A DNA stretch of 63,998 nt, filler included, from Aduncisulcus paluster (Eukaryota), in the NCBI GenBank assembly GCA_024181965.1. It is 10 parts of 10 records of this genome, joined end to end, with 100 filler letters (N's around TTAATTAATTAA, not from the genome) between each part and the next. Parts side by side here need not be neighbours in the genome. Positions count along the whole stretch, not along the records: positions 17,340 to 34,422 come from BQXS01010106.1; 9 more parts are not named here. One strand, 5' to 3'. The translations under genes were made by a program, and so were the position numbers. The notes beneath the pieces were generated by a model that saw only the letters and a list, made by a program, of their open reading frames with translations, had not been told where the DNA came from and ran no database searches. This document shows, piece after piece, positions 9,969 through 63,422 of this stretch. Within the stretch, counting starts at the first letter, position 1. Every line of letters starts with the position of its first letter.

Positions 9969-11279
9969 ATGGAAGAAATTTTGATGGATCATAGGCCAGG
10001 AAACACTGAAAAATATGGGAAAGCACTATATAAAGCAGCCCTGGAGTTTCAAAAGGAAAGAAAAGAGCTTTATGAAGCAGAGAAGAAGAAAAAAGAAGAA
10101 GAATATAAGAAATATTCTTTCAAACCTGATATTATAGTCTGTGAATGTACCCGTGGGAGAAAACCATCAGCAGTTTTTGATAAATTATACCAATCAGCTC
10201 TCGAAGTTCGAGCTGAACAGGAACAAACAAGGAAAGAAGCAGAAGAAAAAAGACTTGCTTCTTATTCATTTCGGCCTAATTTAGAAACTTCTAAGAAAAG
10301 TGAAAAGGGTCAGAGTCAGAAAAAACGACAGGTTTCAAAAATTGCTCGTAGGGTTGAAATTAAGCGTCAAAGAATGCGAGAAAAGAAACTCGGGGTGTTT
10401 TCTGCTCTATATGACGATGCTACAAGGAGACATATGAGACAAGCTGAATATCATTATTGGTTTCCTGAAGATTACACTTTCCACCCCGATTTATCAAAGT
10501 CTTTTTCCACAAATTCGCGTTATAAACCATCCAAAAAGGTTGCTTCTACCCCTCCAAGCGAATTAAGACGTCGAGAAATGGTTGATAGAGCTTCTATTCC
10601 CAGAAGCCTTGACGATGCCTTTGATGGCCGTGAAATGACAAAATCAGAACTTTTAGGATCGAAAGGTGGTCCATCATCCGGTAAAAAGAAGTCAAACCGG
10701 ACTGAGGGCATTGAAGATCTTATGAGTCCTGAGTTGCATGATCAAGGCAGAATCTCCTCAAGAAGACACCCAAAGACTCAACCTCTCCCTCGTCCTTCAT
10801 CATACATTTCCTCCTCGATTGGTACTATTGGATCTATGTCTGGATCCCAAGGGCCTGTGTCTCGAAGCAGAGGTATCGGTGGTCCAGTTGAATCATCCAC
10901 GAACACTGGGCTTTCCCTGTCTTCCTCGACGAAACCACGCCGACAATCTGCCCTCTCTTCCTCCTATGCCAAGACAAGTTCTGATTCTAGTTCTCCTTAT
11001 ATCGTTACTCCGGCGAACTTAACCTCAAGCTACCACGACCCGACATCATGTCTTCTTGCGTATGAAAAAGACAGTGAAACCATGGGAGGAAGTATATTCG
11101 ACATGTTAGACGATGATAAAGATGGAATTTTATACGAAGATGATGTGAAGAACAAAATGACAAAGTTATCATTTCCCGATGATAAAACGAAAGAAAAAGA
11201 AAAGGCCGTCAGTATCCTTTCAGAAACAAAATATCCACTTCTTAGGCCTCAATTTTTGAAGGAACTAAGCAAGAAATGA
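9969..11279 (+). CDS. Hypothetical protein with three LY..A..(Y)xFxP repeats and a C-terminal EF-hand-like loop; possibly cytoskeletal
   Basis: YSFKPDI, YSFRPNL and YTFHPDL, each preceded by LYxxA; FDMLDDDKDGILYEDDV. Confidence 0.6.
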   Translation: MEEILMDHRPGNTEKYGKALYKAALEFQKERKELYEAEKKKKEEEYKKYSFKPDIIVCECTRGRKPSAVFDKLYQSALEVRAEQEQTRKEAEEKRLASYSFRPNLETSKKSEKGQSQKKRQVSKIARRVEIKRQRMREKKLGVFSALYDDATRRHMRQAEYHYWFPEDYTFHPDLSKSFSTNSRYKPSKKVASTPPSELRRREMVDRASIPRSLDDAFDGREMTKSELLGSKGGPSSGKKKSNRTEGIEDLMSPELHDQGRISSRRHPKTQPLPRPSSYISSSIGTIGSMSGSQGPVSRSRGIGGPVESSTNTGLSLSSSTKPRRQSALSSSYAKTSSDSSSPYIVTPANLTSSYHDPTSCLLAYEKDSETMGGSIFDMLDDDKDGILYEDDVKNKMTKLSFPDDKTKEKEKAVSILSETKYPLLRPQFLKELSKK

Positions 11280-12109
11280 ATGTCACATTTTTTACACGGT
11301 GATAAAATGATCATATGTCATGTTACATGACTCATGTATGTACTGTACGATTGTAATTCCGAATTATATTATAAAATTTATTGATGATCAATAATTGGTC
11401 AAAGTAATTCTTCCAAAGACAAATAAATTTGATGAACGAATTCAATTTGCCCAACATGGAAGATCCTCATACATGTACAGCATCCGCCACAATAACTCTC
11501 GTTGAACGAGCCGTTCGACTGTCGAATCGACATCTTGCATTCTTGCTGTTCTCCACAATTTCTCCCCAAGAGATCTCCCTTCTTCTTCTTCTGGGAGGGT
11601 GGGGATTTGATGAAAGAATCTTTCTGAAAGATGTTAAACTACTAGTTTAGAATAGTATTCTTCATGAGAAAGGATTCAAAAACAAGATTTCTGGATATCC
11701 GATATCTATTCCCGCCGGGAAACCGGCGGTTNNNNNNNNNNNNNNNNNNNNACTCTCGTTGAACGAGCCGTTCGACTGTCGAATCGACATCTTGCATTCT
11801 TGCTGTTCTCCACAATTTCTCCCCAAGAGATCTCCCTTCTTCTTCTTCTGGGAGGGTGGGGATTTGATGAAAGAATCTTTCTGAAAGATGTTAAACTACT
11901 AGTTTAGAATAGTATTCTTCATGAGAAAGGATTCAAAAACAAGATTTCTGGATATCCGATATCTATTCCCGCCGGGAAACCGGCGGTTTACATATCCTCA
12001 GAGCAAACGGGAAATCACAATTGGTGAAATATTTATTCCTGTGTTCGTCCGATGGGAAAAGAAGGAGTCATATCGGATACGATATCTTTTCCAATAATCA
12101 GAAATTGAA

Positions 12110-13097: not shown

Positions 13098-13197
13098 NNN
13101 NNNNNNNNNNNNNNNNNNNNNNNNNNNNNNNNNNNNNNNNNTTAATTAATTAANNNNNNNNNNNNNNNNNNNNNNNNNNNNNNNNNNNNNNNNNNNN

Positions 13198-16071
13198 CAG
13201 TGTTTAATTGATTCCGGGGCGAGTGTTTCTTTTATATCGCCTGATTTGGTGAAGAAATTAAACCTGACTGTTTCAAAGGAGGAAAGTTCTGTTGAATATG
13301 GAGACCGAACAAAGAGCATCTCAGAGAAAACGAATGTCTATGTAACACTTCGCCAAGGTATCAACAAACGTTTGATTTGTTTTCCTGTTCAATGTCTGGT
13401 TTCTTCTATCGTTGCAAAGTATGGATTCATCCTGGGAAGAACCGATGCGGAAAGGCATTCATTATATAAACTTACAGCCTTTAGCATGAATGATGAGCTC
13501 GTAGGAGAAGATGCTGACATGGAGGAGAGTGAAGAGTACCCTTGTTTCGACGAAAAAACTACAAAGATTACCCGTGACGCACTGAGAGATCGAATCAGTG
13601 ATGAATATTGTGCGAGAAAGGAATTAGAAGAACTATTGTGGAGTTATAAGGATGTATTTGAACCCTTTGAGGAGGCTGGATCTTCTAAATTACCAGAATT
13701 CACGATCGAACTGATTGAAAACTTTAAACTGTGGAAGATACCTCCACGAAGACTTGCTCCGCTTTACAAGGAAGAAGCGGCAATTCAGGTGAAAGAAGCT
13801 TTGGCTTTGAAGGCTATTAGAAAGTCTAGAAGCAACGTCTCATGTGTTCCAGTGTTCGTAGGAAAGCGAGATGGAAACACACGTATGTGTATAGACTTCA
13901 AGCCGTTGAACCGGAATACGGTGCCTCTAACATTTCCACTTCCAAGAATTGCAGAAATTCTGGACAATTTGGATGGAAAGAGATGGTTTGCTACTTTTGA
14001 TCTGAGAAGTGGCTTTAATCAGATCTCTATCCGAGAAGCGGATAGGCATTTGACAGCTTTTACGGTATTGGGAAACCTCTACGAATATAATGCCATGCCC
14101 TTTGGAGCAACGAATGCTCCGATACATTTTCAGCAGTCTATAGCCAATGAATTCGAAGATCTTATGGGTGATGGTTGTGAAATTTTTGTGGATGACATTA
14201 TTGTGTATGGTAGTGACGAAGAAGAATTCATGAAGAACATAAAAAGAGTATTATCCCGACTAAGAAGCTTAAATCTGAGAGCAAAGCTTTCAAAATGTGA
14301 GTTTGGGAAAGGAAAAATTGCTTATCTGGGTCGTATGGTATCTACAGACGGAATGTCTCCTGACAAAAGCAGGATGAGAGATCTTTTGGAGATCGGTGCG
14401 CCAAGAGACAAGAAACAACTATTATCTCTCTTAGCAATGTTGAATTATTATCGAGTGTACATTTCTGATTTTGAAAATAAGATTGCGGATCTGAGAGAGT
14501 TGGAAAGATCTCACAAGAGATTTGAATGGACAGAGAATCATGAACGAGTTCTCAGAGAGGTATTAAGAGAACTTGGTGAACAGCCAATGCTTTTCTTCAT
14601 CGACTACAGCAAAGACCTATTCTTGAGGACAGATGCAAGTGATCGAGCATTGGGTGGTGTATTATTCCAAATGGATGATAAAACTGAAAAGCCAATAGAG
14701 TATGTATCAAAAGCCTTCTCAAGGTCGGAACGGAACTGGACTATCAACGAGAAAGAAGCTTTTGCAATTAAGTTTTGTGTTGAAAAGCTCCAACATTATT
14801 TGAGAGGATCAGTCTTTACAGTACTGACTGATCACAAGAACTTGCTGGCAATTGAAGCAGCAAAGAGCAGCAAAATTCAGCGCTGGAACATGTTTTTGCG
14901 AGATTTCAGGTTTAAAGTGATTCATGTCCCTGGAAAGGATAATGTGGTACCTGACGCTTTATCAAGAGTGGGCTTTCCAGAAGAACTTCACGTAATGGTT
15001 GAGGTGGATGAGAACTGGAAAGAAGATGCTGTAAAGAGTCAGGACATGCTTTCTAAGAAAGAAAAAGAGTTCTATAAGGAGGATGAGAATGGTGTCTATA
15101 AGGACGTAGACAAGAGAATAATTATTCCCCAAGGAAATGACGAGTTGAAAAGAAAGGTGATGAAACGTTTTCATAATGCCATTGTTGGTCATGGTGGTGC
15201 AGCGAACACCGTTTACAAGATTGAAAGTAGTGGTGTCACATGGCAGTCAATACGGAAAGATGTTGCTGAGTTTGTTTCAGAATGTATGACGTGCCAGAAG
15301 TTGAAAGCAAGGAGAGGAGGAAAGGCTCCTTTGATGACAGGAGAGTACGAGGATCCATTTCATACGGTTTCAATGGACACAATGGGTCCATTACCCATGG
15401 CAGTGTCTGGTGAGAAATACATTATAGTGCTAGTCGATGCTTTCTCAAAATGGGTAGAATTGGTTCCAGTGAGAACATTGGAAGCAGAAGAAGCAGCAGA
15501 TGCATTGGTAAGATCGGTATTTGCAAGACATGGTCTTCCACGACAGATTAAAAGCGATAACGGTCCACAGTTTGCCAATTCTCTATTTGCAAGGTTGACA
15601 ACGTGTTTTGAGGTGTTTCAATATACGACAACACCATATCATCCCGAAGCGAATGGTGCAGTAGAGAGAGTTATGAGAGAATTGAAAAAACATATTCATG
15701 CGTTGCTTCATGATGTGTTGGAAAGAAGAGACTGGATTCGGGCGGTGCCAATCGTTCAGTATGTATTGAACAACACCTTGCATTCAGCAATCGGAGTAAC
15801 CCCACATGAAATGTTATTTGGAAGAAGATTGCCTGTCTGGAGAGATTTTAAGCAGACAAAATTTAAAGACATAGGTTCTGAGAAGGATCAGAAATCGTAT
15901 GTCAAGTACGTTGATGAGTTGACGGATCATTTGAAGATACTAAGATCTCGAGCAGAGTCATATCAGTATGACAGGCTGAAAAAGAAGGTTAAAGGATATT
16001 CAGAGCTGGATAAAAAAACTTGGAATCCTGATGGGTTGTATTTAATTCATCGATTTCCAGTAATAATATGA
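13198..16071 (+). mobile_element. pol: Ty3/Gypsy LTR retrotransposon pol (protease-RT-RNase H-integrase), open reading frame, 5' partial
   Basis: LIDSGA (in frame from 13198); RMCIDFKPLN, FDLRSGFNQI, MPFGATNAP, FVDD; TDASD, EKEAFAI, TDHKNL; H..GH..C..C zinc finger; D-D-E (SMDT, SDNG, VER). Confidence 0.96.
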
Positions 16072-17339
16072 TTTAAAGATCCGTATATAATTTGTATTGT
16101 CCATCGTTGATACCAAATTATCAACCAAATTCCATCCCTGGGTCTAATAAAGATACAAATTAAATATCAATAACTTCAAATCTAATTTATTCCATTTTAA
16201 TGAATATAATCTTCAATAGTATCAAAATTAATGCTTTATCCAACACTTTAGATTCGTCAAGCTAATTTTGTTACAATATACAATTTTATTGTAAGTAATT
16301 ATCATCAAATGAATTGTTGCTGATCGTTTCTAACTGAAATATTATATTCCAAACAGCGAATTCCGATGTTTTATATGTTTTCTTGAGATGAGTTCTTTAG
16401 CAATGAGTATATGAATATAAAACATGATAAAATATCGAATTTCGTGTCAAAAACATCTCGTGGAGCAAATGGCATGATTTTATTGATTTGATTCCTCTCT
16501 TTATACTGTGTCATTCATAACATCTTCATTTGTACAACCTCTTAAGAATATTTTTCCAAATATTCCTGGAATATCACGATAAAAACGGGGCTTACAGTAA
16601 TTGCAATTCGAAGTTCATGTCATTATTCTCTCTACTGCTTGTTATTGTGTGTCAATGATATCTGTTTGGCTCTCGAACCTTTTGATACCTTTTTGTTCTT
16701 TTTATTGACATAAAACTGAACTTAAACGTTTGATATTTGCCATACTACTCCCTAAAATCCTGCTACAAACTAAAAACACTAATAACACTCAACTCTCTGC
16801 TTCTGATTGTTGATCCTGGTTTCCACCCATTGTCTCTGAAAGTAATTGAGAAAATGACACACCTGCCCTCGCTTAACTCATTTGAATCTCGAATAACACA
16901 TCAATAACACCAATAACATCAATAACATCAATGTTATTCCCCAATCTGTGTGTCACATCATCTTATTCTTGGATGGTGATTCTTGATTAGAGATCTTTCC
17001 TTTGTTTTGCCGAATCCAATCTTTTCTCTTCTCTCTCTAAACAGTTCAAACAACATAAGAAGAGAACTTGATCTGCCCAATGAACTTGATTCTTTTATTT
17101 TCTGCCAATCTATGTAGTAAATTTCCCCCCTTTTACCCCCATCCGTGGGGGTCCCCCCTGTACGGTGGTTGCACTGTACATTTCTTTATTATATTTTTTT
17201 CCCAAAAAAACAAACAAACAAAAAAATACACAAACTTTCNNNNNNNNNNNNNNNNNNNNNNNNNNNNNNNNNNNNNNNNNNNNTTAATTAATTAANNNNN
17301 NNNNNNNNNNNNNNNNNNNNNNNNNNNNNNNNNNNNNNN

Positions 17340-19020
17340 GCTGCCCTATCAACTAAAAACTCTTTTTCTCCTTCTAACCTTTCCTCACCGCCCTTCTCCT
17401 CTTCTTGTTCTTTTTCCATTGCTTCCTGATAAAATTCTGCCACATCTTCATCCTTTTGTGTGACTGAAGGATCTTCGTGGAAAATATGTCCTTCCCACTT
17501 ACGATTGAGAATATTCAGCATCACGCGCACTCTCTCTTTCACACCAGATGCTCTCGGAAAGACATGCAAATACTGGGCAACATCAACAGAAACAGACGTG
17601 CTTGCTGACCCCGCTGACTTCACGTTATAGGAGAGAGGTTTATGAATGCACATTGGCAGGGAAGGAAGGAGAGAAGGCGGGAGGGTGGCTGAGAAAACCA
17701 TATGGATGCATCGTTTGAATAAAACATGGGGAAGTTTCTCATCAACATCCTCAGAATCTTCAGCATCACGCGCACTCTCTCTTTCACACCAGATGCTCTC
17801 GGAAAGACATGCAAATACTGGGCAACATCAACAGAAACAGACGTGCTTGCTGACCCCGCTGACTTCACGTTATAGGAGAGAGGTTTATGAATGCACATTG
17901 GCAGGGAAGGAAGGAGAGAAGGCGGGAGGGTGGCTGAGAAAACCATATGGATGCATCGTTTGAATAAAACATGGGGAAGTTTCTCATCAACATCCTCAGA
18001 ATCTTCATCATCATCGGATTGAGTATGTTTACCAGAGGCACCACCAATAAAGTCATCCCAAGTGTCTGATGAAGTCGTAATCGAAGGAACATCAGGAGGA
18101 TTAAGAATCGTGGAAGAAGAAGAAGTATATATTGCGGGATATTGTTTACCATCAAGATGAGAATCTATTGTACGGCGTTTGCCAAGTTCAATTTCTCCAC
18201 CCTTGAGACTAGATGTGTTGGGGATCTGTGGAATAGAAATCCTTGAAGGAATAGAAATTTGGCGCGAACGTTTCAATTTGTCTTTAAATTTAGAAGATTT
18301 TTTTCGCTTAACGTATCTCTTATTCACATTGATACCTGTATCCTTAGTTTGAGTTTTATCCATAGCGAGTTTTTCTTTTTCAAGACTTATTTTCTCAACA
18401 ATTTCATCAAATTGAGATTCATCTTGGGAAGGAATGAATGAAAAACACTTCTCTAATTGGGAAATAAAACGTTTATCAACCATTTTATCAATTTCATCAA
18501 CAACCACAATTTTGAGGGACAGAAGATTACAGAGGTCAGGGCGCCGGTCAACAAGGTCAATCAATCGGCCTGGAGTAGCAATGAGGATGTGACATCCACC
18601 AGATAACGCAGATATATGCTCATTTATGGATTTACCACCACTAGCACAGATAACAGAAAGAGGACGTGCCCATCCCTTTGAAGAAAAAGGAATATTAGGA
18701 AGTGATAATTTATGAATCTCTCGTTCAATTTGCTGCCCAAGTTCTCTTGTAGGAACAATAATCAAACCTTTAATGTCAATATGTTTATGAGTAGGTCGTT
18801 GATATGCCAAAGATTCAGAGATAAGTTCAACCATAGGAATAATATATGCCAACGTTTTACCCGATCCTGTCGGAGAAAGACCGATAATATCACGGCGATC
18901 TTGTAAAACACTTGGGATCACCAAACTTTGTATTCTTGTTGGATTTGGGAATTTTTTTTCAAGAGATATCTCTAATGGCTTACTGAGATTTAACTTTTGC
19001 CACTTTTGAGTCTCATCCAT
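17340..19020 (-). CDS. DEAD-box RNA helicase, Prp28/DDX23-like, 3' partial; interrupted by a 245-bp tandem duplication
   Basis: Q motif FPNPTRIQ, SPTGSGKT, PTRELGQQ, GG, TPGRL, DEID, SAT. RDIIG and MVFSATLPP...KP....SAG resemble Prp28. Confidence 0.85.
17514..18007. repeat. 245-bp exact tandem duplication that frameshifts the helicase; probable assembly artefact
   Basis: 17514..17762 equals 17759..18007. Confidence 0.85.
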
Positions 19021-19218
19021 ATAGAATAGGATGCAAGAAAAGATATTTTTCAAAAAAATTGGCTATCCGGTGAAATAATGATAATACTATAAATCTGGTA
19101 CAATAAACATACTTAATATTAAGTGACTATTTATAATAAGAATACAATTCTGATTACATATGGATGGATCGATGGTGGTGTTAATTTCTTTGATTTTTGC
19201 TGAACACAATCTTAAAAT

Positions 19219-19833
19219 ATGGTATGTATAGTTGAGACTTTTATTTATAATCATATATATATAAAATTATATCATTAATTTTTTTCTTATTGTTAGTCTT
19301 CATCCCAATTTTCCAAATTGAAGGAGAAACAGCCAAAAGTAGAGCATTTAACACAACATGATATAGCAGAAGATATTAGAAGAATGTGGGAACTTTCGCC
19401 ACTCTATGATCCCCTTCCTCCATTTCATTTGTTGATCAGACCCTCATACGCATCAGTATCTACCGAAACCGCTGGTATTGATCCAACAATTCCAATAGCC
19501 CTGGCTGGAATTCCAACAGATCTTCCCCTTGAAATGGAAGAGCCACTTATTACGACCGGTTTAACTCATGAGGAAGAAGAATTATTGAATCATCCCCCAA
19601 AACCTCCAACCATCTTTGATGCTCTTGTTGAGACGATGAAAGAATGTGGTGCATTACCCCCCCGCGTTGATATTCCCCAACCCCCAGCTAGACCACCCGG
19701 AATGAGTGTGCTTGAATATGAACGTGTTATGACCGAACATGGAATTCTACTTCCGAGGACTGTCCCCCAACATCCTTCTCAAAAACGAGTTGAAGAGGAA
19801 TTGATGGATAGTGTTGGAAGAACAGGTAGATAA
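19219..19833 (+). CDS. Pro-rich hypothetical protein; exon 1 is the ATG alone (19219-19221), intron 19222-19296, exon 2 19297-19833
   Basis: ATG|GTATGT...TGTTAG|TCT TCA TCC CAA joins in phase 0 to the 19318 ORF. Confidence 0.7.
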
Positions 19834-20384
19834 AATTTTTGTTAGTAGAACTACTTGATCAATACATACAGACTGCTCATACTTATAGACTGAAAAATTA
19901 CAAATATTTGGCAAAATTATTAAATAAACAACTTTTATTTCACTCCCATTTGAAAGCTGGAATAGACCATTCCGAATAGATCTCTGCAATCCATTATAGT
20001 TGGAAAGCTCAGGAGTCATTACTGCTCACAGTGATAAGGAACATTAGAGTACATGAAATCCATTCAGTTGCGCTCGAACTGAGTTCTTTGACACCAGCCT
20101 GGTGTCTGAGTCAGATCATCTGAATCATGATGATTTTGCGCAAGTATTATACAATTCAAGGAGGCTCAAATAGAATAAATCTGACCGATATGGAGCTTTA
20201 GTTGACCTTTCACCGCAAATAACCATAATAGTGCATCAATTCAGTTATCTTTAGCAAATTTGAGTTTCTGGCTTTAAATCAGATTATTGAGGAGAATAAA
20301 TGACGTAAAAATGGTAGAATGAACATTTTAAAGAAAGAATTTATCTCAAAATCAGTAATATATTTCTCATTTGATGAATAATAA

Positions 20385-20974
20385 ATGCTTGATATCGAGG
20401 CTATTAATAGAACCACTCATCATGAAAGCTTTTTGGAGCCGTATAACAGTAAGATGGGAATTCGTGTCAAGAAAATCACAAAGGGAAAGCGTCAACCAGT
20501 TCGTAAAGCCACCAAACCCACATACCCCGATGCTAAGACCATGGATCACATTATGCAATCCCGTTTCAAGTGCCGTCAGGTACCTGTGACTGAGGTTTCC
20601 CTTATGATGAAGGACAACTCTGTTAAAATGTTCTCTCAACCTATGTGTATGTTTTGTTATTATTATCAATTTTCTTCCACCATCATTGTATGATTGCTTA
20701 TCCGTATTATTCTTGCTTTTTTTGGATTATTTCTTTTTGTTTTAACTTCCCCCAATATTATCACTTAGTCATGGGTAATGGTGGATCTAACGTTTGGTAC
20801 GTCTCTGGTCCTTCTGAAAAGAAGTCCTTTGGTGACTACCTCCAACACGTTGCTGCTTCTATCCAACAACACCTCTCTCCTGAGGACCTTAAGCGTTTCG
20901 CTGAACAACAATCCAAGATGGAAGGTGCTCCCGGAGCTATGCCCGATATCGAATCCTTTGAAAAGGCTGAGTAA
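20385..20974 (+). CDS. BTF3: Nascent polypeptide-associated complex beta subunit; intron 20647-20768; start may be 20454
   Basis: Spliced product VTEVSLMMKDNSVKMFSQPMFMGNGGSNVWYVSGPSEKK...LSPEDLKRFAEQ...MPDIESFE matches NAC-beta. The GTATGT...CTTAG intron restores the frame. Confidence 0.82.
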
Positions 20975-21242
20975 GACATTTTTATAACATAGTAAAATCT
21001 CCATCATTTGTCGTTTTTTGTATTTATTTTATTGCCATGGTCAAAAATTGAAAATAGTCCTTATATTTTGTCGATTTGGCCCAAATCACCAGGATCCCTA
21101 AGATCTTGGATATTGGACGATAAAAAAAATTAAATTGGGAATTTTACTCCGAAATAATAGCGTCATTATATTCTTCATTGAAATATTTTGCTGTTATTTT
21201 TGGAAAATCCAAAGAATATCTATTTGTTGACACAATAACACA

Positions 21243-21854
21243 ATGTCCGAAGTTCCACCTCCAAAAGATAAAGATGAAGATTTCGTTGATGAATCTGGAT
21301 ACAAAGGAGCTGCCAAGATTTCCATGAGTGAAGCCTTGGAAGCTGACAAAGGAGATGAAGCTCTTGACAAATGGAAAGCTGCCCTTGTTGCAGATGTGGA
21401 TACCTCCAGTGATGAGTCTGATCCCAGGCAAGTTATTGTTGATAAACTTGTTATCACTACAGATTATGGTGCCAAATTTGAATTCGATTTGTCTACTGAA
21501 GCCAAAGTTAAGGCCTTTTGTGAACAAGAAATGGCTTTTTCTTTGATCGAAGGATGCACTTACACCATGAAGATCCTCTTCCACGTTAGAAAGGAGATTG
21601 TCGCTGGTTTCTGTTACGTCAATCTTGTTTACAAGGGTCCCTTCAGAATTCTCAAGGAGCAGCAGATGTTTGGAAGTTACGCTTCAAAGGCTGCCCAACA
21701 ACAATTTACTTTCCCCGTGAAAACAGCCCCCAAGGGTCCCCTTGCCCGTGGAAAATACACAGCAAAGGCTAAATTCACAGATGATGATAAGAACCTCCAT
21801 TTGCAGATTGAATACAGATTTGGGATTGAAAAAGCCCCTAAACCCAAGAAGTAA
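21243..21854 (+). CDS. ARHGDI: Rho GDP-dissociation inhibitor
   Basis: DKGDEALDKWKAALV, EGCTY, EIVAG, MFGSY, APKGPLARGKY.AK.KFTDDD. Confidence 0.93.
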   Translation: MSEVPPPKDKDEDFVDESGYKGAAKISMSEALEADKGDEALDKWKAALVADVDTSSDESDPRQVIVDKLVITTDYGAKFEFDLSTEAKVKAFCEQEMAFSLIEGCTYTMKILFHVRKEIVAGFCYVNLVYKGPFRILKEQQMFGSYASKAAQQQFTFPVKTAPKGPLARGKYTAKAKFTDDDKNLHLQIEYRFGIEKAPKPKK

Positions 21855-22062
21855 GGCGAATAAAATTGTAATAGTGTTTGTACAATGAACAACTTCGAAT
21901 AATAATAAATTTTTTCTTCATGGACAAATTGTTTATCAATGAAAAAATATATTAGCAATAATATCGTTATCATTCAAGCAATTACTCCTCGTACATAATG
22001 AGATTTACTCCATCAGATACTCTGAATTTGCTAGGTGATCAGTGGCCATAACTTTTTGAAGC

Positions 22063-24699
22063 ATGGAATCCAAGGAGCCGGCCGATTATGAGTATATTGA
22101 AATAGGAAAAGGCAAATCAATCCATCCATTTCCAAATCATCGGACTTTAACCGAGGTTTTTTTCAATATCGCATCGACATATCCTGATCAGCCATATCTT
22201 GGTAAAAGAAAATATATTGGTGGAAAATTTGAGGGAGAGTATCATTTATTGTCATATTCTGAAGTTTTTCAGATTTGCCAGGACCTTGCTTGTGGTTTAG
22301 ATAAACTCTCGATTTGTGGAGTATCCAATTACCAAAATCCATCATCAATCGATGAAATTTCTGGAAAGGTTGATACTATCATGGATTTGAAGCTGAGACC
22401 TAAGGCTGCGATCATCAGTCGAAGCTGTATTGGATGGTCTATGGTTGATAATTGTTGCCAGATGGCTGGTGTAATTTCTGTCCCTGTTTATGATACCTCT
22501 AGTCCTGCTGATATTCAGTACATGATCAGTTTGACTGATGCTGAAATATTATTCATTTCGCCCACATTAGCTCACGTGTTCCCATTACTTTATGAATGTG
22601 AGAAAGTGAAACTCATCGTTGTCTTGGATGAAGATGAAGAGAAGAAAGAGTGGGTTGGGCAAAGAGAAGACCTTTTTGCCGATTCTTTGGCCCGGCTAGT
22701 TGCCTCACATTTCCCAGATTTATTTCCCCCCCCAGAACCCGTTGAATCTCTTCCAATTCTTTTTGAAAGAGTTCGTTCCAAGATGGAAATGGGTGCTTCT
22801 TCCTCCAAAGATGCTCCAACTCCAGCCAAATCGCCAATTTCTCTCCTTGGACCCAATGATGAAGACACTATAAAATTCATTGCCAATGGGGGTCGTTTTA
22901 TATCACTGAGTCAGTTGAGAGCCATTGGACGGACATCATACATTCCCCATAAAGATATTCATCCACTCACTCGTACCCATCCTATGCCTCTCCCAGATTC
23001 TGTCTTTACGATCATCTTCACCAGTGGAAGTACAGGTTATCCAAATGGTGCTGTCATTACTCACCGTGCCATGACCTATGCTTTGGCCCGGTTGCAACAG
23101 AGATGGCTTGATTGTGAGGACCAACGAGCCTTCATTTTCTTACCGCAAGCCCATGTATATCAGAGGTGCTTTGATGTCTTGACAACTTATTGTGCCGGAC
23201 AATTGCTCTTCTATAGCGGATCTTTGGCCACTATGGGATCAGATATGGAGGCTGCTATCCCCACACAGATGGCCCTTGTCCCCCGAGTTCTGGAGAAGAT
23301 TTATAATGGAGTTATGGCTACCCTCGAGAAAAAGGGAGCAATCGCCCAGCTGTTATATAAATGGTGTTTCAATTTGCAATTCAAGAGCATACAGAAACGT
23401 AAAAAGAGGAGTTGGTTCCCAGATGCCTTGGTTTTGAACAATATCAAGCGCAAAACAGGAGGAAAACTCACTATGATGTGCTGCGGTGCTGCTCCAATGT
23501 CCAAAGATCTTGCTATCTTCACTGAGGTTGCCATTGGAGGCCGTTTAATTGAAGGATATGGTGCCACAGAGACCTGTGCAGCCACTTGTGCAATGCAGGC
23601 TGGAGACGGTTACGATACGTTTGGGACGGTTGGAGACGTTATGTTCAACACGACTGTTCGTTTATGTGATGTTCCTGAGCTCGGATATTATGTAAATCCA
23701 GAGAAAGCAAAAGCCGAAGGAAAATCTCCAATCAATACCCTTCCCACCGGTGAGATCTTGATTGCTGGTCCTTGTTTGTTTGACCATTATCTCAAGAATC
23801 CAGAACATACCGCCGAATCGTTCACTTCTGATGGATTCTATCGCTCTGGAGATGTTGGAGAAATGACTTCCTGTGGAAAAGTCCGTATTGTTGACAGAAT
23901 CAAGAGTTTCTTTAAGCTTGCCCAGGGTGAATTCGTTGCAGCCGAGAAGATTGAGGTCTGTATCCGGAAGAGTTCTTTTATTGAGCAAGTGTATGTCAGT
24001 GGGAAAAGTACTGAAAGGTATATCGCAACTGTGATTGTTCCGAACATGATCTCTCTCCGCAAAGCTATGAGTAAGGTGTCTGTGAAGGCCAGTGAACACC
24101 ATCGCCGTGGAAAAGGAGAAGAGGAAGAAGAAGAGAAGGGTCACATCCCCCCCAAGGAGATAGAGTTCTCCAAGATGAATGATGCCGAGTTCCTTGCACA
24201 ACCCCGTGTCAAAGAAGCTATATTTGTCTCTGTCTTGAAACACTGCAGCGAGGATAAGCTGAAAGGATTTGAATTACCTCGTTATATGGTCATTGATCCC
24301 GTTAATTGGGAACCTGAGAGTGGGCTTGTGTCTCCAGCTCTCAAGATCCGTAGACCGCCTTTGAAGAAGTACTATGAGAGGTCCATCGATCGTTTATACA
24401 AGATTGCAAGAGCTGAAGAGGCCAGAAGACTGTCATCAACACCTGCTAAGAAGAAAGTTGATCCCAAATCACGCACTCATGCTCCTTCTTCTGTTTTCTC
24501 TGCAACCTCTGCTTCTTCCGTTTCTTCTGGTTCACACTTCAAGGAAATGGTTGGTTTTGAGAGTGAATTCCATGTTAAGGGAAGACATCTTGCTTGTATG
24601 CTTGATTTGAGGGCTTTTGGAACCCTTGAAGCTGTTGGAGCCATGACTGGAGGAGAAGGAGAAGTGAGAGGGAAGGTTGTCGTGAAAAAATCGATATGA
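22063..24699 (+). CDS. ACSL: Long-chain fatty acyl-CoA synthetase
   Basis: IIFTSGSTGYPNG, FLPQAHVYQR, EGYGATET, SGDVG, DRIKSFFKLAQGEFVAAEKIE. Confidence 0.93.
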   Translation: MESKEPADYEYIEIGKGKSIHPFPNHRTLTEVFFNIASTYPDQPYLGKRKYIGGKFEGEYHLLSYSEVFQICQDLACGLDKLSICGVSNYQNPSSIDEISGKVDTIMDLKLRPKAAIISRSCIGWSMVDNCCQMAGVISVPVYDTSSPADIQYMISLTDAEILFISPTLAHVFPLLYECEKVKLIVVLDEDEEKKEWVGQREDLFADSLARLVASHFPDLFPPPEPVESLPILFERVRSKMEMGASSSKDAPTPAKSPISLLGPNDEDTIKFIANGGRFISLSQLRAIGRTSYIPHKDIHPLTRTHPMPLPDSVFTIIFTSGSTGYPNGAVITHRAMTYALARLQQRWLDCEDQRAFIFLPQAHVYQRCFDVLTTYCAGQLLFYSGSLATMGSDMEAAIPTQMALVPRVLEKIYNGVMATLEKKGAIAQLLYKWCFNLQFKSIQKRKKRSWFPDALVLNNIKRKTGGKLTMMCCGAAPMSKDLAIFTEVAIGGRLIEGYGATETCAATCAMQAGDGYDTFGTVGDVMFNTTVRLCDVPELGYYVNPEKAKAEGKSPINTLPTGEILIAGPCLFDHYLKNPEHTAESFTSDGFYRSGDVGEMTSCGKVRIVDRIKSFFKLAQGEFVAAEKIEVCIRKSSFIEQVYVSGKSTERYIATVIVPNMISLRKAMSKVSVKASEHHRRGKGEEEEEEKGHIPPKEIEFSKMNDAEFLAQPRVKEAIFVSVLKHCSEDKLKGFELPRYMVIDPVNWEPESGLVSPALKIRRPPLKKYYERSIDRLYKIARAEEARRLSSTPAKKKVDPKSRTHAPSSVFSATSASSVSSGSHFKEMVGFESEFHVKGRHLACMLDLRAFGTLEAVGAMTGGEGEVRGKVVVKKSI

Positions 24700-25265
24700 G
24701 CTTACAAAACTACATAAAAAAATAGGTTTTGTTTCTATTTTTTTGGAATATTTTTGAGTTTTGGTTCCAGATTTTTTTATTCCTTTCTTCTCTCACTTTC
24801 TTTTCCATTCTCTTCCTTTCAAATCCTTTGTATTTGTTTTATTACTATTCTTTTCCTCTATATTATTATGATCACGAAAAATATTCGTCGACTCATTGTA
24901 TATTTTCGCCTTTTTATATTGATATGCCACATCATTATGTGCAATCACAATATCTGTTTGATTCCGAGTTTTTTCTCCTCTTTTTTACAATCTGCATTAA
25001 ATATCTCTGATATGATCATATTATGATCTTAGTATCAAGATATGTTTTAATAAATGAAATTCTTCCCCAAATGTTGTGATAGTGGCAATATGTCATGAGT
25101 CAGAAAATATGAATGCGGCAGTTCACTTCAACCTCTCCCTTTTCACACACTGTGTACTCGAGAACTCATATCAATGTAGTGACTGACAAATTAACGAAGA
25201 GAACAGGATATGGAGTCAATCATTATTGTAGAGTACCTATATTGACTCAAAGTATATTAGCTTTG

Positions 25266-27806
25266 TTATTTCTCAGTAATAAGATATGTTTGATATGAAA
25301 CCAATGAATCGTTACACGTTGGACATCTTTTAGCTTCTTTCCATCCCTCATCACAATGTATACACCATAATTCATGGCTGGCATCTTCCACGCCTTCTAC
25401 GTCTGTAAATTCTGTTCCTTTCTTGTATTTTACAACCTTTTTATCCTTTTTCTTAACTTCAAATACCCTTTTAGCCGTTTTCATGGCTATTTCCGAGATT
25501 AATTTTTTTTCAAACCAATAAGATAAGAGTTCATCCAGAGCTTCTTTTTCCTGTGAAGATACATTCATTGACATCACACGGCCATATTCACATGTTTCCA
25601 ATGATCTGATTCTTGATAACAGTGAAGGAACATGGAAATGAGGGAATTTCCAGATAGCCATGTCTTTTGGGAATCTTTCATCTCCTTCTTCCTCCTCATC
25701 TTTCTCTCCCTCTTCTTCCTTGGATTTCTCGCTTCCATCCTGTTCTCCACGTCCAATTCCTCCATATCCCCATACTCCCATAGTGGAACATTCCATTTTG
25801 GACAGAGTGTCTCTCACAGGAGATATCCTGAGAGTGACTGCTGTCACAAGAAGCGGATGGGGTGATAAAATACAGATTCCGATGTGATCAGACATGACAG
25901 AGAAAGAGGGCAGGAAAGAATCGAATACATCGCTATGTTTACAACCAATGGATCCATCTTGGTGCTTCGACTGAATATCCTTCAACACATCAACCATATC
26001 TCCATTCATTCGCATCATGTGTTTTGAGACATTCCCGCTCTTACAAAAACAGCGATCACTCGGCTTATCTTGGCCTTCTTTCACAAGACCATCACAGATA
26101 CACAGACAGAAGGGATTTGGGAGGATTGAGTGGAGAATCACAATCGAGGGTGTTAACACATGGGTGTGGATCATGATTCCAGATTCAGTCAGTGCAAAAA
26201 CATCACCAGCAGCGGTAACAGAGATATCTACGAAAATGGGGAAAGAAGAGGGCTGGAAGAGGGGTGAGAAGAATTGAAAATTCTTAACACTTTCAGAATG
26301 GCCCTCCTCACACTCTCCAATAACGATTTCTCCACTCTCTCTGAGAGATTCAAGATATAAAGGCAAAGGTACACCTGCTGGCATATCCTTCACCCTATCC
26401 ATCCCAAGCCACTCTGAAGCAGTCCTTTGTTCTGTTGCATCAGCTTTCTTAAACGATAAATTGAACATTCTGCTCTTATTGTCCATGATGACAATTGTTC
26501 CCATTGGGAGACAGTATGCAATACAATCTTTCCCATCAAGTTTACACCAGTCGATGGCTACAACACGAGGGGAAAACGAAGGTGGACATGACGAATCAAG
26601 TAAATTAATGGCACGAAACGATGCGTGTTTCTCAGAAGGGACCGATTCATCTGGTTCTCCTTTCCTCCTCCTCTTTCCCATCTTTGTGAGTTTCAGAGGA
26701 AACAGAATCACTATCCATACGAATAATAACAACAGAACAATCACAACATGCACAAATACATCCAGGAATGGGACCTTTCAATGGAGTAATGGCTGTGAGA
26801 GGAGCTGGAAGGATGAAGTAGAATATCAACTCGACAGACAAAGTGGAATCAATTGATGGCTTCAGGACATATAAAACATTATTGCTGCAAACAAGGAACA
26901 AATATTCATTATATCCCGAAATATGAGTTACAACTGGAGTATAAGGAGGAAATAGAATCTCATTATCTATTTCATTTTCATCATCTTTCTTAGGTGATGA
27001 TTTCGATGAAGACCGAGCTTTGGATCTGGAAACCTTCTTTTTTTTTGGAATTGGAATTGGAACAGAATCAAGACGAAACAACTTATCTTCACTACTAGCA
27101 ATGGCCACAGTTCCATATTGGGAGAGTCCAACAATACAAGGAACATCATAACCTTTAATATTGATCAGGCAAGTGTCAAAAAACAAACCATCTTGCGTAG
27201 ATTCCCCAACAACAAAGCACGCCGTCTTTAGAGNNNNNNNNNNNNNNNNNNNNTCCCGAAATATGAGTTACAACTGGAGTATAAGGAGGAAATAGAATCT
27301 CATTATCTATTTCATTTTCATCATCTTTCTTAGGTGATGATTTCGATGAAGACCGAGCTTTGGATCTGGAAACCTTCTTTTTTTTTTGGAATTGGAATTG
27401 GAACAGAATCAAGACGAAACAACTTATCTTCACTACTAGCAATGGCCACAGTTCCATATTGGGAGAGTCCAACAATACAAGGAACATCATAACCTTTAAT
27501 ATTGATCAGGCAAGTGTCCAAAAACAAACCATCTTGCGTAGATTCCCCAACAACAAAGCACGCCGTCTTTAGAGCATCTGAACATCGGTGAGCAGGTATA
27601 ATATGCTTTGTTTTCGGCGCATACGTTTCCTTTTGACCAAAAAATTTCTTTGAAGATATGAAATATTCTAAAAATGCATCAGAATCAAGGGAGCTGAGAT
27701 TCGTTGTGTGATATAACCCGACTCCATAGTGTGTACACATTGAAACATATCCATTATTAGATAAAAAGCAAGAATACCTTGAACTTCGAACTAAACATCT
27801 ATTCAT
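25266..27806 (-). CDS. Hypothetical beta-propeller-like protein with a C-terminal CxxC..CxxC; fragmented by a gap duplication and an apparent frameshift near 26660
   Basis: Three collinear ORFs; ~26914..27233 duplicated at 27254..27574 (T9 vs T10); ends WCIHCD...RCPTC. Confidence 0.55.
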
Positions 27807-28187
27807 TGGAGAGATAAGCGAAAAAAATTCTTCATTGGTCAGCTTCCCATCAAAAGTTAATTATTTTCCAAATTTCTGGATAGAAATATTGACTTTATTT
27901 AGTTTCAACCTTATTTTATCGTTTTTCAATTCAATGAAATTGGTTTCTTTACAGATATAAAAGCTGATTTCACATCAAATGAAAATCACCGATCCAAGAA
28001 TTTTTTCCAGTATTATTATTTCTTTTCTTGATTTTTATTGTCGTGACCGAATACTGTATTTCTGGAATTGAAGTTTCTTGAAAACAATGATCTATAAATA
28101 ACACCGATCCGTTTTGCTCACCTCCTACACTTAACAGAAGTAATTTAATTTTAATTTATTAACTTAATCTCATAAAAAATTAAAATT

Positions 28188-36516: not shown

Positions 36517-39500
36517 AGTTTTATCTAACTTTAATTACTCATCTGAGCTAGAAGTAATACATTCCTTGTCTTCATCTTCAGTACTGAGAAGAGTATCAAT
36601 TGATCTTCGTTTACCAATGGCGATATAGCTCGGAATTATTTCTCCAAAATATCCCCAACTTCTAAACATTTGCTCATCAAGTTTAGAGACCCATCCAAAA
36701 TCTTTTGAATAATCAAGACAGTATCTCACCATGCCCATATCACTCACATCAACCTGATTTTTGTTCAAGATAACGTCAACGTAAATAACACTAGAGACAA
36801 GCGAACCACGAATCAGTTTGTCGTGGATAAGACTAACCCCATGTTTTAGCATAAGGGATGATTTAAAATAATCAACGGGGCTCATAAAAAGCAGATCAAC
36901 CTCCTTCTCACCAGACTTTACAAAAGTGGAAACACAATCACGAAAATCCTTAAATTCTGGGAGAATCTCAGAACACACNNNNNNNNNNNNNNNNNNNNAA
37001 CATTTGCTCATCAAGTTTAGAGACCCATCCAAAATCTTTTGAATAATCAAGACAGTATCTCACCATGCCCATATCACTCACATCAACCTGATTTTTGTTC
37101 AAGATAACGTCAACGTAAATAACACTAGAGACAAGCGAACCACGAATCAGTTTGTCGTGGATAAGACTAACCCCATGTTTTAGCATAAGGGATGATTTAA
37201 AATAATCAACGGGGCTCATAAAAAGCAGATCAACCTCCTTCTCACCAGACTTTACAAAAGTGGAAACACAATCACGAAAATCCTTAAATTCTGGGAGAAT
37301 CTCAGAACACACACCTCTAAAACTTAGCTCAGCATAACCACTTTGGTCGCTAGCCCTCCATATAGCGATATCTCTGCAAAGCTTCCTGTGTACGAACTCT
37401 CGTTCGTCTTCTTCAACACAACCAATCAGAATATTTACAAATAATAGTTTTGAATTTGTTTAAAACACATCACTAACCAAAACAAGACTTACAATTCAAT
37501 TCAATTGAGTACAAGTTGTACTACAATTGATAGTATCAAGTTGATTTACTATTTAGGTTCTTACTTAGAATCGGATGATTCGGATGATTCCGAATCTCTT
37601 GAGTCAGTAAACTCCGAGTTAATCGAGTCGATAATGTGATAAGTACTTTGTTTCTGAGAAGACATACTATGGATAGTAGTACTAATAGAGGGATGATAAG
37701 TTATCAAAAATGAACTTTTGTTTTGTCTTGAATATGCCTGCACAAGTGCGAGTTGAACGTCCGTTATCATCACTACAACTGCTTGAATATATCACAGATC
37801 TTTAGGAACAGATTCTAAAATCACAAGAAAGGGAAGGGATAACGAAGGTTGCTGATGCTGTTCATATTGCAACAACATGGCGCAATCATGATGGAAAGAA
37901 ACACATTGATGATATTCTTGAGGCATCAAGTGGTGCTGATAGTGACTGTGACATCTATAAAGATCAGTTAGAATACATTCAAACAATTTTATCGAATCTA
38001 AGGTCATGCCTCCTAACTCTTGGTCATGTAGCAAGTCACCACAATGTAGATCGGGTGGGCTAAATAACAACCTGTCGGTTACCCATGAATATATGAGGTT
38101 ATTCTCATCATAATAGCTTACCGTATCAATGGAATCATCTTCTGATAATGGAGAGAGCCTCTTCACTGCGATATTCTCCTTTCAGATTGCAACATGTGTA
38201 CCTAACACACAATGCACTATGTCTACTTCTGTCAATAGTAATACCATCCATGAATGCGATAATAAGACCAATGAAGAAGATGGGGGATGTACCAGGATAC
38301 CCGAGTCAATTTATTGAATAAACGGTCACAATTATTCTATTCACATCATTGAATACATCACNNNNNNNNNNNNNNNNNNNNAGAAACACATTGATGATAT
38401 TCTTGAGGCATCAAGTGGTGCTGATAGTGACTGTGACATCTATAAAGATCAGTTAGAATACATTCAAACAATTTTATCGAATCTAAGGTCATGCCTCCTA
38501 ACTCTTGGTCATGTAGCAAGTCACCACAATGTAGATCGGGTGGGCTAAATAACAACCTGTCGGTTACCCATGAATATATGAGGTTATTCTCATCATAATA
38601 GCTTACCGTATCAATGGAATCATCTTCTGATAATGGAGAGAGCCTCTTCACTGCGATATTCTCCTTTCAGATTGCAACATGTGTACCTAACACACAATGC
38701 ACTATGTCTACTTCTGTCAATAGTAATACCATCCATGAATGCGATAATAAGACCAATGAAGAAGATGGGGGATGTACCAGGATACCCGAGTCAATTTATT
38801 GAATAAACGGTCACAATTATTCTATTCACATCATTGAATACATCACCATAATATGTTTCGTCACTATGAGAATTGGAACAATTTGAATGGTTGAGATGAC
38901 TGATATTCATGACATTTGTAATCCGTGGCCTTCCATAAATGCCGGTGAGAAAAGGGCTGAGAAAACCCGACGGCTGTTTGTCACCTTCTCAGGATGTTCT
39001 AATTATAGAATTCAAGACTGTCCGTTTATTAAGAAAAATGTAACCAGTCAACAGTATATACTATGGCCATTAAGGTTATGAGCAACAAGGATACCGAAAA
39101 ATCCGAAAGAACTAGCGCTATGAACCCTCCAAAACCACCCTTTAAAATCGTTGGACACGAAAAATTGGGGAGGGTTCACACGAGAACTTACGCATTACAA
39201 GTCTCTTGGGGGAACAAAAAAGTGAATCGAAATGGTTGAAGCCAGTGCCCTGGCCGTAATCACGGATATTTCGGATGTGCAGGATCAACAGATTCTGTCG
39301 ATATCTCGGAGATAGAAACGGTAGCAATTTATTGGAAAGTAAACAGAAGGACATCAGGTCTATAAATAGAACACTGAGAAAACCTACAGATTCAGTTTCT
39401 AGAGTAATGAAGACACCTTTTAGCTCCGGAATGCATATTGCAGATACGGAAATGCTCCTAAATGATCGGGAAGCAGCAAAAGAAGAGAGTTCAGAAACTC

Positions 39501-45434: not shown

Positions 45435-45807
45435 ATATAATTGTTTGCATATAATTTGTTACGGGCCGTAATACGGCTGATGGAGCAAATTCATTTAAAT
45501 AAAAGTACCGGTTATCACCGATTGATGTGGTAGTAGGTGAGTCACCTGGGTGACTCTCGTTATGTTAGTATGATGGTATTACAATGTTGTTTATTTATTA
45601 TTGACAGAAACTATTATTATTATTTATTATTTTGAAGTTATCATCTTATTATATTAAAGGATTAAGAATGTTTTATTTTTTGGTTCCGGTTTGGTTTCAA
45701 ATCCAAANNNNNNNNNNNNNNNNNNNNNNNNNNNNNNNNNNNNNNNNNNNNTTAATTAATTAANNNNNNNNNNNNNNNNNNNNNNNNNNNNNNNNNNNNN
45801 NNNNNNN

Positions 45808-62797: not shown

Positions 62798-63422
62798 GTG
62801 TCAGTACAACGAAAATGACTGTGCAAAATTTACTAGAACATTTCAAGCTTGTTCATCTATTTTTAGATGAGAAGAAACAAAGTTAAAAGCAACAAAAATA
62901 AAAATAAATAAATAATTGAGAATAAAATAAGTCAATAAATCTTAAACAAAATGTAATTTTATTCTCAACCAATACAGGGGTGTGGTGACCCCACCTCAAA
63001 ACTTTTTATAACACGATATTTCTAGAACAATATTTATTTTTATTATTATTTATTTGAATTATGTTTATTTTATATATTTATTTTATATTCTATGTCTCAT
63101 AATTTGACATGTAATTGATTTCACAAGAATCAATCTGATCTCCCGCAAACCAATAAATTCAATTTAGTACAAGTTGTACTACAATGTTAGATAGTATCTA
63201 ACGTTGACGAATCGTCTCCGTGTTATTCGCTTATTTAGTGACTAACACCACATTAGTAGTTATCAAAACTCGACCAAAGTGCGCTGTAATATACCTTATA
63301 TTATATCATATTTTTATTATTTATTTTACTCTATTCATTATTCTCAGAGATCTATTTTTAGGAGTTTCGGTTCATGTGTTTATTCTTAAATAAATTTGTC
63401 TGCGCTTTACTAAGCCTGTCAC

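Follow-up and report, generated by a model that had tools for sequence, protein, structure and literature searches.

The palindrome chain described here lies between two genes that are both located on the plus strand of an Aduncisulcus paluster scaffold (Table 1). It occupies the interval 243–319 nt downstream of the stop codon of a 171-aa ORF and 233–309 nt upstream of the ATG of a two-exon gene, the first exon of which has no Pfam family and no relative among solved structures. The two exons are joined at a GT..AG joint (20646->20769) that was seen in six contigs of run X2 and one contig of run X3, and the spliceosomal intron between them (20647–20768), which starts with GTATGT, is skipped by the spliced contigs. 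A minus-strand ORF (19747–20019) appears to be non-coding and was set aside. The scaffold as a whole (17340–34422; 17,083 nt) carries ordinary genes.

Run X2 has been treated as RNA-like because it contains spliced contigs and because its depth changes in steps of more than 1000-fold. The depth is approximately 10 over the spacer 18990–19319 and approximately 410 over 19312–20281, where one contig spans both the upstream ORF and the chain, and it reaches approximately 376,000 from 20310 on, a jump of about 1000-fold that belongs to the downstream gene; the chain is found 160–230 nt upstream of this point. Given that a single X2 contig covers the upstream ORF and the chain, the chain is transcribed, and most simply it is part of the 3′ UTR of the upstream gene. 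The contig continues for 129 nt beyond the chain, although contigs do not reveal RNA ends. An 18,250-nt contig of DNA run X1, possibly the source sample, carries the chain without differences, and so does a 970-nt contig of X2, a run of the same sample. Its presence in contigs of two separate runs means that it is not the artefact of a single library, and no polymorphism was seen in the contigs examined.

The window, meaning the whole stretch of DNA that was analysed (63,998 bases), is made up of approximately ten small scaffolds and is not a single chromosome stretch. The DNA is eukaryotic, with approximately 38% G+C and few introns, and encodes RhoGDI, a DEAD-box helicase, an AMP-binding enzyme, DPP-IV, an ABC transporter, SET proteins, SH3 proteins and a Ty3/gypsy pol; with a spliceosomal intron, RhoGDI and retrotransposons present, the genome is cellular. 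A homology search with RhoGDI recovered just the window's own protein (1 of 236 candidates), and the closest Atlas clusters lean toward fungi. No RNA families or tRNAs were found in the window, and a scan for bacterial promoters and terminators returned no terminator-like site, its model being bacterial and uninformative for this eukaryote. The scaffolds are separated by nine identical 100-base linkers (44 N, a 12-base six-frame stop word and 44 N) and contain nine internal 20-N gaps, eight of which are bordered by a duplicate of 99–100% identity and 237–465 nt that represents unmerged contig overlap; the gap at 55896–55915 adjoins duplicates of 287 and 509 nt. In addition, a tandem duplicate of 261 nt without a gap (17508–18013) is collapsed in an independent contig, and 11752–11988 is an assembly duplicate of 11495–11731. 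Counting was done after masking of the linkers, one (TA)n run and, for every assembly duplicate, its second copy; an ORF-based gene list made for this analysis then assigned 44,120 bases of the window to coding DNA and 15,975 to non-coding DNA. All palindrome counts refer to this 64-kb window, with its approximately 16 kb of non-coding DNA on unplaced and partly transposon-bearing scaffolds, and are compared with dinucleotide-preserving shuffles (in 500-nt blocks for the coverage test).

Table 1. Positions of the 20.1-kb chain, its neighbouring genes and the other palindrome-rich loci of the window.
Feature	Position	Strand	Description
Upstream ORF	19318..19833	+	171 aa; no Pfam family
Downstream gene	20385..20974	+	two exons (20385-20646, 20769-20974); unknown family; very high RNA-like depth
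Palindrome chain	20076..20152		seven perfect members, abutting or overlapping; six odd (one-base centre), one even
Member 1	20076-20086		arm 5, one-base centre
Member 2	20090-20106		longest; 8-nt arms, central C; sole member forming a hairpin in predicted folds
Member 3	20105-20115		arm 5, one-base centre
Member 4	20111-20123		arm 6, one-base centre
Member 5	20123-20135		arm 6, one-base centre
Member 6	20136-20143		even 8-mer
Member 7	20144-20152		arm 4, one-base centre
Zigzag core	20105..20135		three odd palindromes with shared arms
Spacer	11280-12109		converging ORFs; 13 odd palindromes, arm >=6
Spacer	19834-20384		3 odd palindromes, arm >=6
Spacer	36157-39274		7 odd palindromes, arm >=6
Spacer	45435-45707		3 odd palindromes, arm >=6
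Spacer	62795-63373		diverging gag-like ORFs; 3 odd palindromes, arm >=6
Largest palindrome-rich spacer	11279..11731		between ends of two converging ORFs
Chain	37496..37545	+	five odd palindromes; related to 63154-63216; further palindromes at 37577-37635
Chain	45459..45556		two overlapping odd palindromes 25 nt past ORF stop codon
Chain	63154..63216	+	five odd members; flanked by two gag-like ORFs that diverge; related to the 37.5-kb chain

Structure of the 20.1-kb chain

The original prediction was that seven palindromes tile 77 bp of intergenic DNA almost completely, and all seven were found where it had placed them. When palindromes with arms of at least 4 nt and a spacer of 0–1 nt between the arms are counted, 74 of the 77 bases are covered and the only gap in the tiling is at 20087–20089. 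No other 77-nt frame in the window reaches as high a value, and none of 100 shuffles does: their best frame averaged 43.2±4.4 covered bases, with a maximum of 59. The zigzag core contains, in addition to its three odd palindromes, a larger imperfect palindrome of the form 10+1+10 centred on 20117. The chain has no second copy in the window, where the best match of its 551-nt spacer elsewhere is 15 nt. No terminal inverted repeats were found for it and no clear element boundaries were seen; the sole direct repeat that flanks it matches at 11 of 12 positions, 177 nt apart, and may be due to chance.

Selection for structure is one possible source of such an arrangement: the palindromes could act as RNA hairpins in 3′-UTR stability or 3′-end formation, or as signals for replication or cruciform extrusion in single-stranded DNA. 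Transcription of the chain within the would-be 3′ UTR of the upstream ORF is in keeping with this, but folding barely beats that of shuffled sequence. The predicted RNA fold of 20050–20180 has an energy of -31.2 kcal/mol (z -1.48; 19 of 200 shuffles as good) and the DNA fold one of -18.3 kcal/mol (z -2.09; 9 of 200 as good). Moreover, a hairpin loop of one base cannot form, so that selection for hairpins should not require pairing directly beside the centre, yet palindromes that are perfect up to the centre dominate. Selected hairpin or cruciform signals, which were among the mechanisms first put forward, are therefore a poor fit to a chain with z-scores of -1.5 (RNA) and -2.1 (DNA) through which an RNA-like contig passes, and we consider them unlikely.

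A different kind of selection would operate if the palindromes were regulatory modules, that is, packed two-fold-symmetric sites for dimeric DNA-binding proteins (bZIP-type) forming an upstream element of the gene at 20385. The bZIP-type AP-1/Gcn4 sites (TGA-S-TCA) are odd, with overlapping half-sites, a length of 7 bp and a single central C/G pair. One heptamer of this kind, TGAGTCA at 20107, is held in the zigzag core; the even 8-mer at 20136–20143 resembles a C/EBP-type site; and the whole chain precedes the approximately 1000-fold rise in RNA-like depth by ~160–230 nt. Chain loci hold four of the window's 12 TGASTCA sites, but a total of 12 where 15.7±3.3 are expected amounts to no enrichment, sites that abut or overlap could not all be occupied together, and the arms of 7–9 bases found among the palindromes exceed half-sites. 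Protein sites of this type are a possible explanation of the chain, albeit a doubtful one.

Inverted repeats by spacer length

The check that had been named beforehand was a spike of palindromes with a one-base centre (spacer 1) over shuffled sequence, and such a spike was observed, in non-coding DNA only. Palindromes with a one-base centre and arms of at least 5 nt number 69 in non-coding DNA (27.0±4.8 in shuffles), those with arms of at least 6 nt number 37 (7.6±2.4) and those with arms of at least 7 nt number 15 (2.2±1.6), values that none of the 60 shuffles reached. At the same minimum arm of 6 nt, non-coding DNA has no excess at spacer 0 (9 against 6.5±2.3; 12 of 60 shuffles as high) or at spacer 2 (10 against 7.4). 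Nor is there an excess in non-coding DNA at spacer 5, or at spacer 3 among non-nested cases (8 against 5.8), the spacer-3 count being raised solely by palindromes nested in the spacer-1 class. The number of inverted repeats is thus dependent on spacer length, with the spike at 1 and a lesser rise at 4, where 18 non-nested hairpins were found against 5.4 to 5.9±2.4. Ten of these 18 lie in the same intergenic spacers as chains, and seven carry a GNRA loop on one strand, compared with a share of 9% in shuffles (0 of 200 reach seven). Coding DNA shows no excess at any spacer (15 against 16.4±5.0 at spacer 1). The surplus of hairpins with 4-nt loops, and the GNRA loops among them, would suit selected RNA or DNA structures; such selection should, however, enrich non-nested spacer 3 equally.

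The profile bears directly on the proposal that the chains are footprints left by the excision of hairpin-forming transposons (hAT/CACTA), comparable to P nucleotides. Opening of hairpin-capped ends, as in V(D)J recombination and hAT excision, yields palindromes without a spacer, and the footprints are a few bases long. This part of the original prediction finds no support in the absence of an excess at spacer 0 and in the one-base centre of six of the seven chain members. Where a few bases would be expected, the stretches here measure 77–450, and no remnants of target-site duplicates were seen; nothing beyond the presence of palindromes in spacer DNA speaks for excision, which we regard as scarcely credible.

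It could also be asked whether the spike reflects chance, low-complexity sequence or an artefact of assembly. Mirror repeats, which serve as a control without pairing meaning, are 2–3 times more numerous than in shuffles at all spacers in non-coding DNA (23 against 7.4 at spacer 1), and the assembly is rough, with every 20-N gap flanked by a near-identical duplicate. The mirror repeats indicate that shuffles underestimate chance symmetry in low-complexity spacer DNA, and hence that spacer 1 is more fairly judged by the reverse-complement counts at spacers 0 and 2, which are flat and show no inflation; it exceeds them approximately 4-fold. Simplicity of the type ‘one word plus its reverse complement’ was rejected as a general cause, as the dominant word and its reverse complement reach p<0.01 in only one of eight chain segments; in the 20.1-kb chain, where TCA/TGA occurs nine times in 77 nt, p=0.05. 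When applied to 54 kb of unrelated DNA, the same script yielded a flat profile, with 78/20 at spacer 1 and 67–88/16–32 at the other spacers; the searched word was masked in these control loci since it had itself inflated the spacer-1 count. With the duplicates, linkers and (TA)n run masked, and with the chain in contigs of two runs, chance or artefact is very improbable.

The palindromes themselves have two further properties. Their arms end sharply: past the first mismatch, 72 of 222 positions are complementary (0.32), where chance gives 0.27 and chance palindromes in coding DNA give 0.32. Perfect arms followed by chance-level complementarity point to discrete copy blocks and not to longer hairpins that have decayed. 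The first mismatch is of the G/T type in 17 of 68 cases, compared with 10 of 61 in coding DNA, a lean too slight to favour a selected RNA structure. Secondly, G/C centres are over-represented among the non-coding cases, at 64% where shuffles give 36±9%, and none of the 60 shuffles attains this share. Odd parity combined with a G/C centre recalls AP-1/Gcn4 half-site dimers, but the three bases on either side of the centre vary between palindromes and no common half-site emerges.

Chains in other spacers and a related pair

Similar chains had been predicted to recur in other spacers of the window, and they do, at 11279–11400, 11498–11532, 11612–11731, 37496–37545, 37577–37635, 45459–45556 and 63154–63216. 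The next-best 77-nt frames after the 20.1-kb chain start at 11317 (71 bases covered), 63152 (59), 37610 (59) and 37470 (53), and a weaker cluster is found at 16546–16574, downstream of the Ty3/gypsy pol ORF. In the 45-kb chain, the odd palindrome at 45535–45547 overlaps an 8+2+8 palindrome. The distribution is patchy: 29 of the 37 non-coding cases with arms of at least 6 nt fall in five of the 27 spacers, and the other 22 spacers are without a chain. Per kb, such cases number 4.6 in 3′/3′ spacers, 2.1 in 5′/5′ spacers and 1.5 in 3′/5′ spacers, where one locus supplies 13 of the 16 cases of the 3′/3′ class. The chains are hence neither a property of every gene end or promoter nor bound to one type of flank.

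This distribution bears on both forms of selection. Long odd palindromes or chains are found just past stop codons or between converging genes at 11279–11731, 21073–21087, 25010–25028, 45459–45477 and 56229–56248, as would suit signals in 3′ flanks, and yeast inverted repeats are also reported to cluster more in 3′ flanks (PMC2908449). Chains occur in 5′/5′ spacers too, however, and most gene ends lack one. Regulatory sites are hard to reconcile with the position of the richest locus, where two ORFs converge at their 3′ ends, and with the many spacers that lack a chain.

The chains at 37.5 and 63.15 kb differ from the others in being related. They have approximately 50 nt in common at 88% identity, with unrelated flanks. 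All 38 of 38 cells pair in the two chains, and all four arm substitutions that distinguish them form two double changes. When the partners are slid by 1–3 columns, 26–38% pair and there are no double changes; in the shuffle control, 113 of 500 reach the observed number, a weak control with two sequences only. The changes are as if copied from one arm to the other (arm homogenisation), again with a weak control, as two double changes in the sole related pair are involved. A covariance model of the conserved chain scored only its two source copies in the window and found no further copies; the next matches (E 0.03–0.06) are the reverse strands of the source copies, 11611–11666 and the assembly duplicate of the latter at 11868–11923. 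A 19-nt word of the conserved chain matched 21 loci in a metagenome scan, which are chance matches, and 0 of 21 share the flanking chain. The prediction that the chains are not a repeat family holds for the 20.1-kb chain, which has no similar stretch in the window, and fails for this other chain, which is present twice.

The pair raises the question of whether the chains are pieces of mobile elements, either LTR or untranslated regions of retrotransposons or fold-back, MITE-like elements with sub-palindromes at their ends. The 63.15-kb chain lies approximately 290 nt upstream of the likely start of a gag-like ORF, the 37.5-kb chain shares its scaffold with reverse-transcriptase remnants and has a 19-nt inverted partner 127 nt away, and the cluster at 16546–16574 follows the Ty3/gypsy pol. 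Small unplaced scaffolds, of which the window consists, tend toward repeat richness, and copies of an approximately 50-nt unit within unrelated flanks are what mobility would produce. On the other hand, each chain differs in sequence, and the 20.1-kb chain, on its scaffold of ordinary genes, is single-copy in the window, lacks terminal inverted repeats and has only the 11/12 direct repeat 177 nt apart beside it. A mobile origin is improbable for the chains as a group, and slightly more so than selected structure. The same pair can be set beside the protein-site explanation: in its favour, one chain has been conserved in two places whose flanks are unrelated, and one of these places is upstream of a gag-like ORF; against it, double changes in both half-sites would be unexpected if the protein had remained unchanged.

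Origin of the chains and known systems

Three mechanisms were offered with the original prediction, and iterative snap-back or template-switch synthesis is the one that fits best, in that arms abut or share bases, arm ends are sharp and the sequences are unique; the other two are unsupported. Our preferred reading, to which we assign a probability of about 0.38, is that the chain may be the mutational scar of repeated short snap-back or template-switch synthesis, with its symmetry kept by quasi-palindrome correction. A polymerase would repeatedly turn back and copy the 4–8 bases it had just made or passed, through snap-back during break repair or through short template switches in replication. 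Each turn would leave one perfect short palindrome, and the next would begin where the previous one ended or reuse its second arm, giving a gap-free and partly overlapping tiling of unrelated sequences; the scars would persist only where no reading frame is broken. If one arm changed, the result would be a quasi-palindrome, and quasi-palindromes are known hot spots of templated correction; in this way the arms would stay perfect, and both sides could change without selection. The excess of spacer-4 hairpins in the spacers that hold chains would fit a process that acts through hairpin turns. Together, the unique sequences, the tiling, the sharp arms, the location in frame-free DNA, the weak folding, the co-occurrence with tetraloops and the double changes suggest a process, not a signal. 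The polymerase events, their timing and the enzyme are what we infer from an excess that is restricted to non-coding DNA, from tiling with sharp arm ends and weak folding, and from symmetric double changes in DNA of which the 20.1-kb chain is transcribed.

Snap-back and quasi-palindrome models as they are known need a loop of approximately three or more bases or a self-complementary microhomology, which is an even seed. The chains do not match this geometry, as one-base centres dominate and neither spacer 0 nor non-nested spacer 3 rises above chance. Neither the restriction to odd centres nor the prevalence of G/C at the centre is, to our knowledge, predicted by any model, and repeated turn-around synthesis leaves both unaccounted for. 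The approximately 50-nt chain that is kept at two loci with unrelated flanks is likewise easier to reconcile with selection or mobility than with neutral scars. Another possibility, about as doubtful as the protein sites discussed above, is a dedicated, sequence-independent process by which non-coding DNA acquires or retains tiled palindromes whose centre is exactly one unpaired base, usually G/C. It could consist of a polymerase of repair or replication for which a one-base turn-around is obligatory or, alternatively, of a protein family that reads two-fold symmetry and not sequence.

Short inverted repeats are known to accumulate between genes, and either mutation or selection may place them there. 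The window is an unusually clean case: an excess of one parity, a biased centre, gap-free tiling and paired arm changes would be specific enough, given a whole genome, sister strains and RNA-end data, to separate polymerase geometry from selection by proteins or for hairpins. If the parity rule is genome-wide, it would point to a turn-around mechanism or a symmetry reader so far undescribed in eukaryotes, from which new hairpins in transcribed DNA would also arise; if it is not, the chains would be a local curiosity of repeat-rich unplaced scaffolds. If a dedicated process exists, it would leave an odd-only genomic signature that is absent from the surveys of eukaryotic inverted repeats, two of which describe a preference for spacer 0 instead (PMC2908449; PMC13155455). 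In the open-access literature, no description was found of odd, overlapping, consecutive or clustered palindrome chains like these.

Several known systems share some of these features. The AP-1/Gcn4 sites of bZIP proteins resemble the 20.1-kb chain in odd length, in the central C/G pair, in a position upstream of a strongly expressed gene and in the one exact heptamer; the chain differs from them in its lack of a common half-site, in a motif that is not enriched, in longer arms and in overlapping sites. In the Mimiviridae, the ‘hairpin rule’ describes nearly every gene as ending in one stable hairpin that is cleaved and polyadenylated (PMC4402537). These hairpins share with the chains the occurrence of unrelated, transcribed palindromes in spacers after genes; the present case differs in having 22 of 27 spacers without a chain, weak folds, contig read-through and a cellular genome.

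Closer parallels exist for synthesis that turns back on itself. In alternative end joining, SD-MMEJ snap-back synthesis is reported to make inserted bases part of new, longer inverted repeats and to be capable of at least two rounds (PMC5728401), polymerase theta is described as alternating between untemplated and snap-back extension (PMC4912351), and template switching is reported to homogenise the arms of short inverted repeats in the yeast lineage (PMC8604942). The likeness extends to reverse-complement copies of adjacent bases, several rounds, longer repeats and homogenised arms. Each of the events described in these sources involves one junction, a few to tens of bases in size, with microhomology as the primer and a real loop, whereas here the chains are 60–450 nt long with odd G/C centres.

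The nearest comparison as regards distribution is that with yeast and with genome surveys. A survey of 118,019 genomes (arms of at least 10 nt) reports that eukaryotic inverted repeats mostly have spacer 0 and bacterial ones spacer 4 (PMC13155455). In Saccharomyces cerevisiae, intergenic inverted repeats outnumber those of randomised sequence and surpass them in perfection; they cluster and overlap, whilst those in coding DNA are at chance level and 3′ flanks show more clustering, and a correcting or lengthening process has already been proposed for them (Strawbridge et al. 2010; PMC2908449). Their counts are reported as approximately constant for spacers above 1 and ‘somewhat larger’ at 0 and 1, in real and randomised genomes alike (PMC2908449). 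As in yeast, there is here an excess over random sequence, clustered between genes, with coding DNA at chance; unlike what is described for yeast, the window has a 4–5-fold spike at spacer 1 alone and none at 0, a G/C bias at the centre and gap-free tiling. The chains thus belong to the known clustering of short inverted repeats between genes, and what is new in them is the spacer profile, the centre bias and the tiling.

Inverted repeats in the non-coding spacers

Perfect hairpins with 4-nt loops constitute a second class of inverted repeat, located partly in the same spacers as the odd-palindrome chains (tiled short palindromes, mostly with one-base centres). They are present in ~3-fold excess in the non-coding DNA of the window (n = 18 sites), and in 7/18 the loop is of the GNRA type on one strand, a count that was reached by 0/200 shuffles. 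The palindrome-chain loci, which occupy ~1-2% of the sequence, have also been found to hold 4 of the 12 TGASTCA (AP-1/Gcn4-type) heptamers of the window, within which this motif shows no overall enrichment.

Coordinates of features in the window
Feature	Position	Strand
TGASTCA heptamers within palindrome-chain loci	11328, 20107, 37600, 45538	
Perfect 4-nt-loop hairpins, non-coding (examples)	6068-6085, 11712-11729, 21949-21964, 37577-37596, 41555-41574	
Artificial linkers (n = 9)	4629-4728, 13098-13197, 17240-17339, 34423-34522, 41938-42037, 45708-45807, 51273-51372, 58771-58870, 62400-62499	
20-N gaps beside duplicates	2428, 11732, 27234, 36979, 38362, 47105, 55896	
Tandem duplicate within helicase gene	17508-18013	
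Two-exon gene, no known family	20385-20974	+
Gag-like ORFs, diverging	62504-62794	-
	63374-63997	+
14-nt even palindrome	62784-62797, 63423-63436	
Ty3/gypsy pol ORF, intact-looking (RT, RNase H, integrase)	13246-16071	+
RT/RNase H remnant, degenerate	40184-40948	-
ORF regions with low-complexity repeats	12321-12682, 44540-44640, 46578-46668, 48190-48650	
ORF with EGF and teneurin-type EGF repeats	56954-58600	-

Linkers and assembly duplicates

The window is a pseudo-molecule of ~10 unplaced scaffolds, and neighbourhood across a linker is therefore meaningless. All nine linkers are identical, their 100 bases comprising a 12-base six-frame stop word with 44 N on either side. Duplicates of 237-509 nt (99-100% identical) adjoin nearly all of the 20-N gaps and are unmerged contig overlaps, whilst the tandem duplicate in the helicase gene (261 nt) is collapsed in an independent contig. 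Both kinds of duplicate split ORFs and inflate repeat counts.

Genes and retrotransposon-related ORFs

The two-exon gene has an RNA-like depth (contig depth in run X2) of ~376,000 vs ~400 for neighbouring genes; its spliced form and the adjoining RhoGDI gene are both matched at ≥99% identity in a run from 2013 whose label names another organism. The two gag-like ORFs share 40% identity, and the same even palindrome is found just 5' of the likely start codon in both. The degenerate remnant displays 31% identity to the Ty3/gypsy pol ORF, which lies on a separate scaffold.

Low-complexity repeat units of ~45 nt are common to ORFs on four scaffolds, and these regions show a strong G-over-C skew (maximum 0.33). 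The ORF carrying EGF and teneurin-type EGF repeats would be unusual were the organism a fungus.
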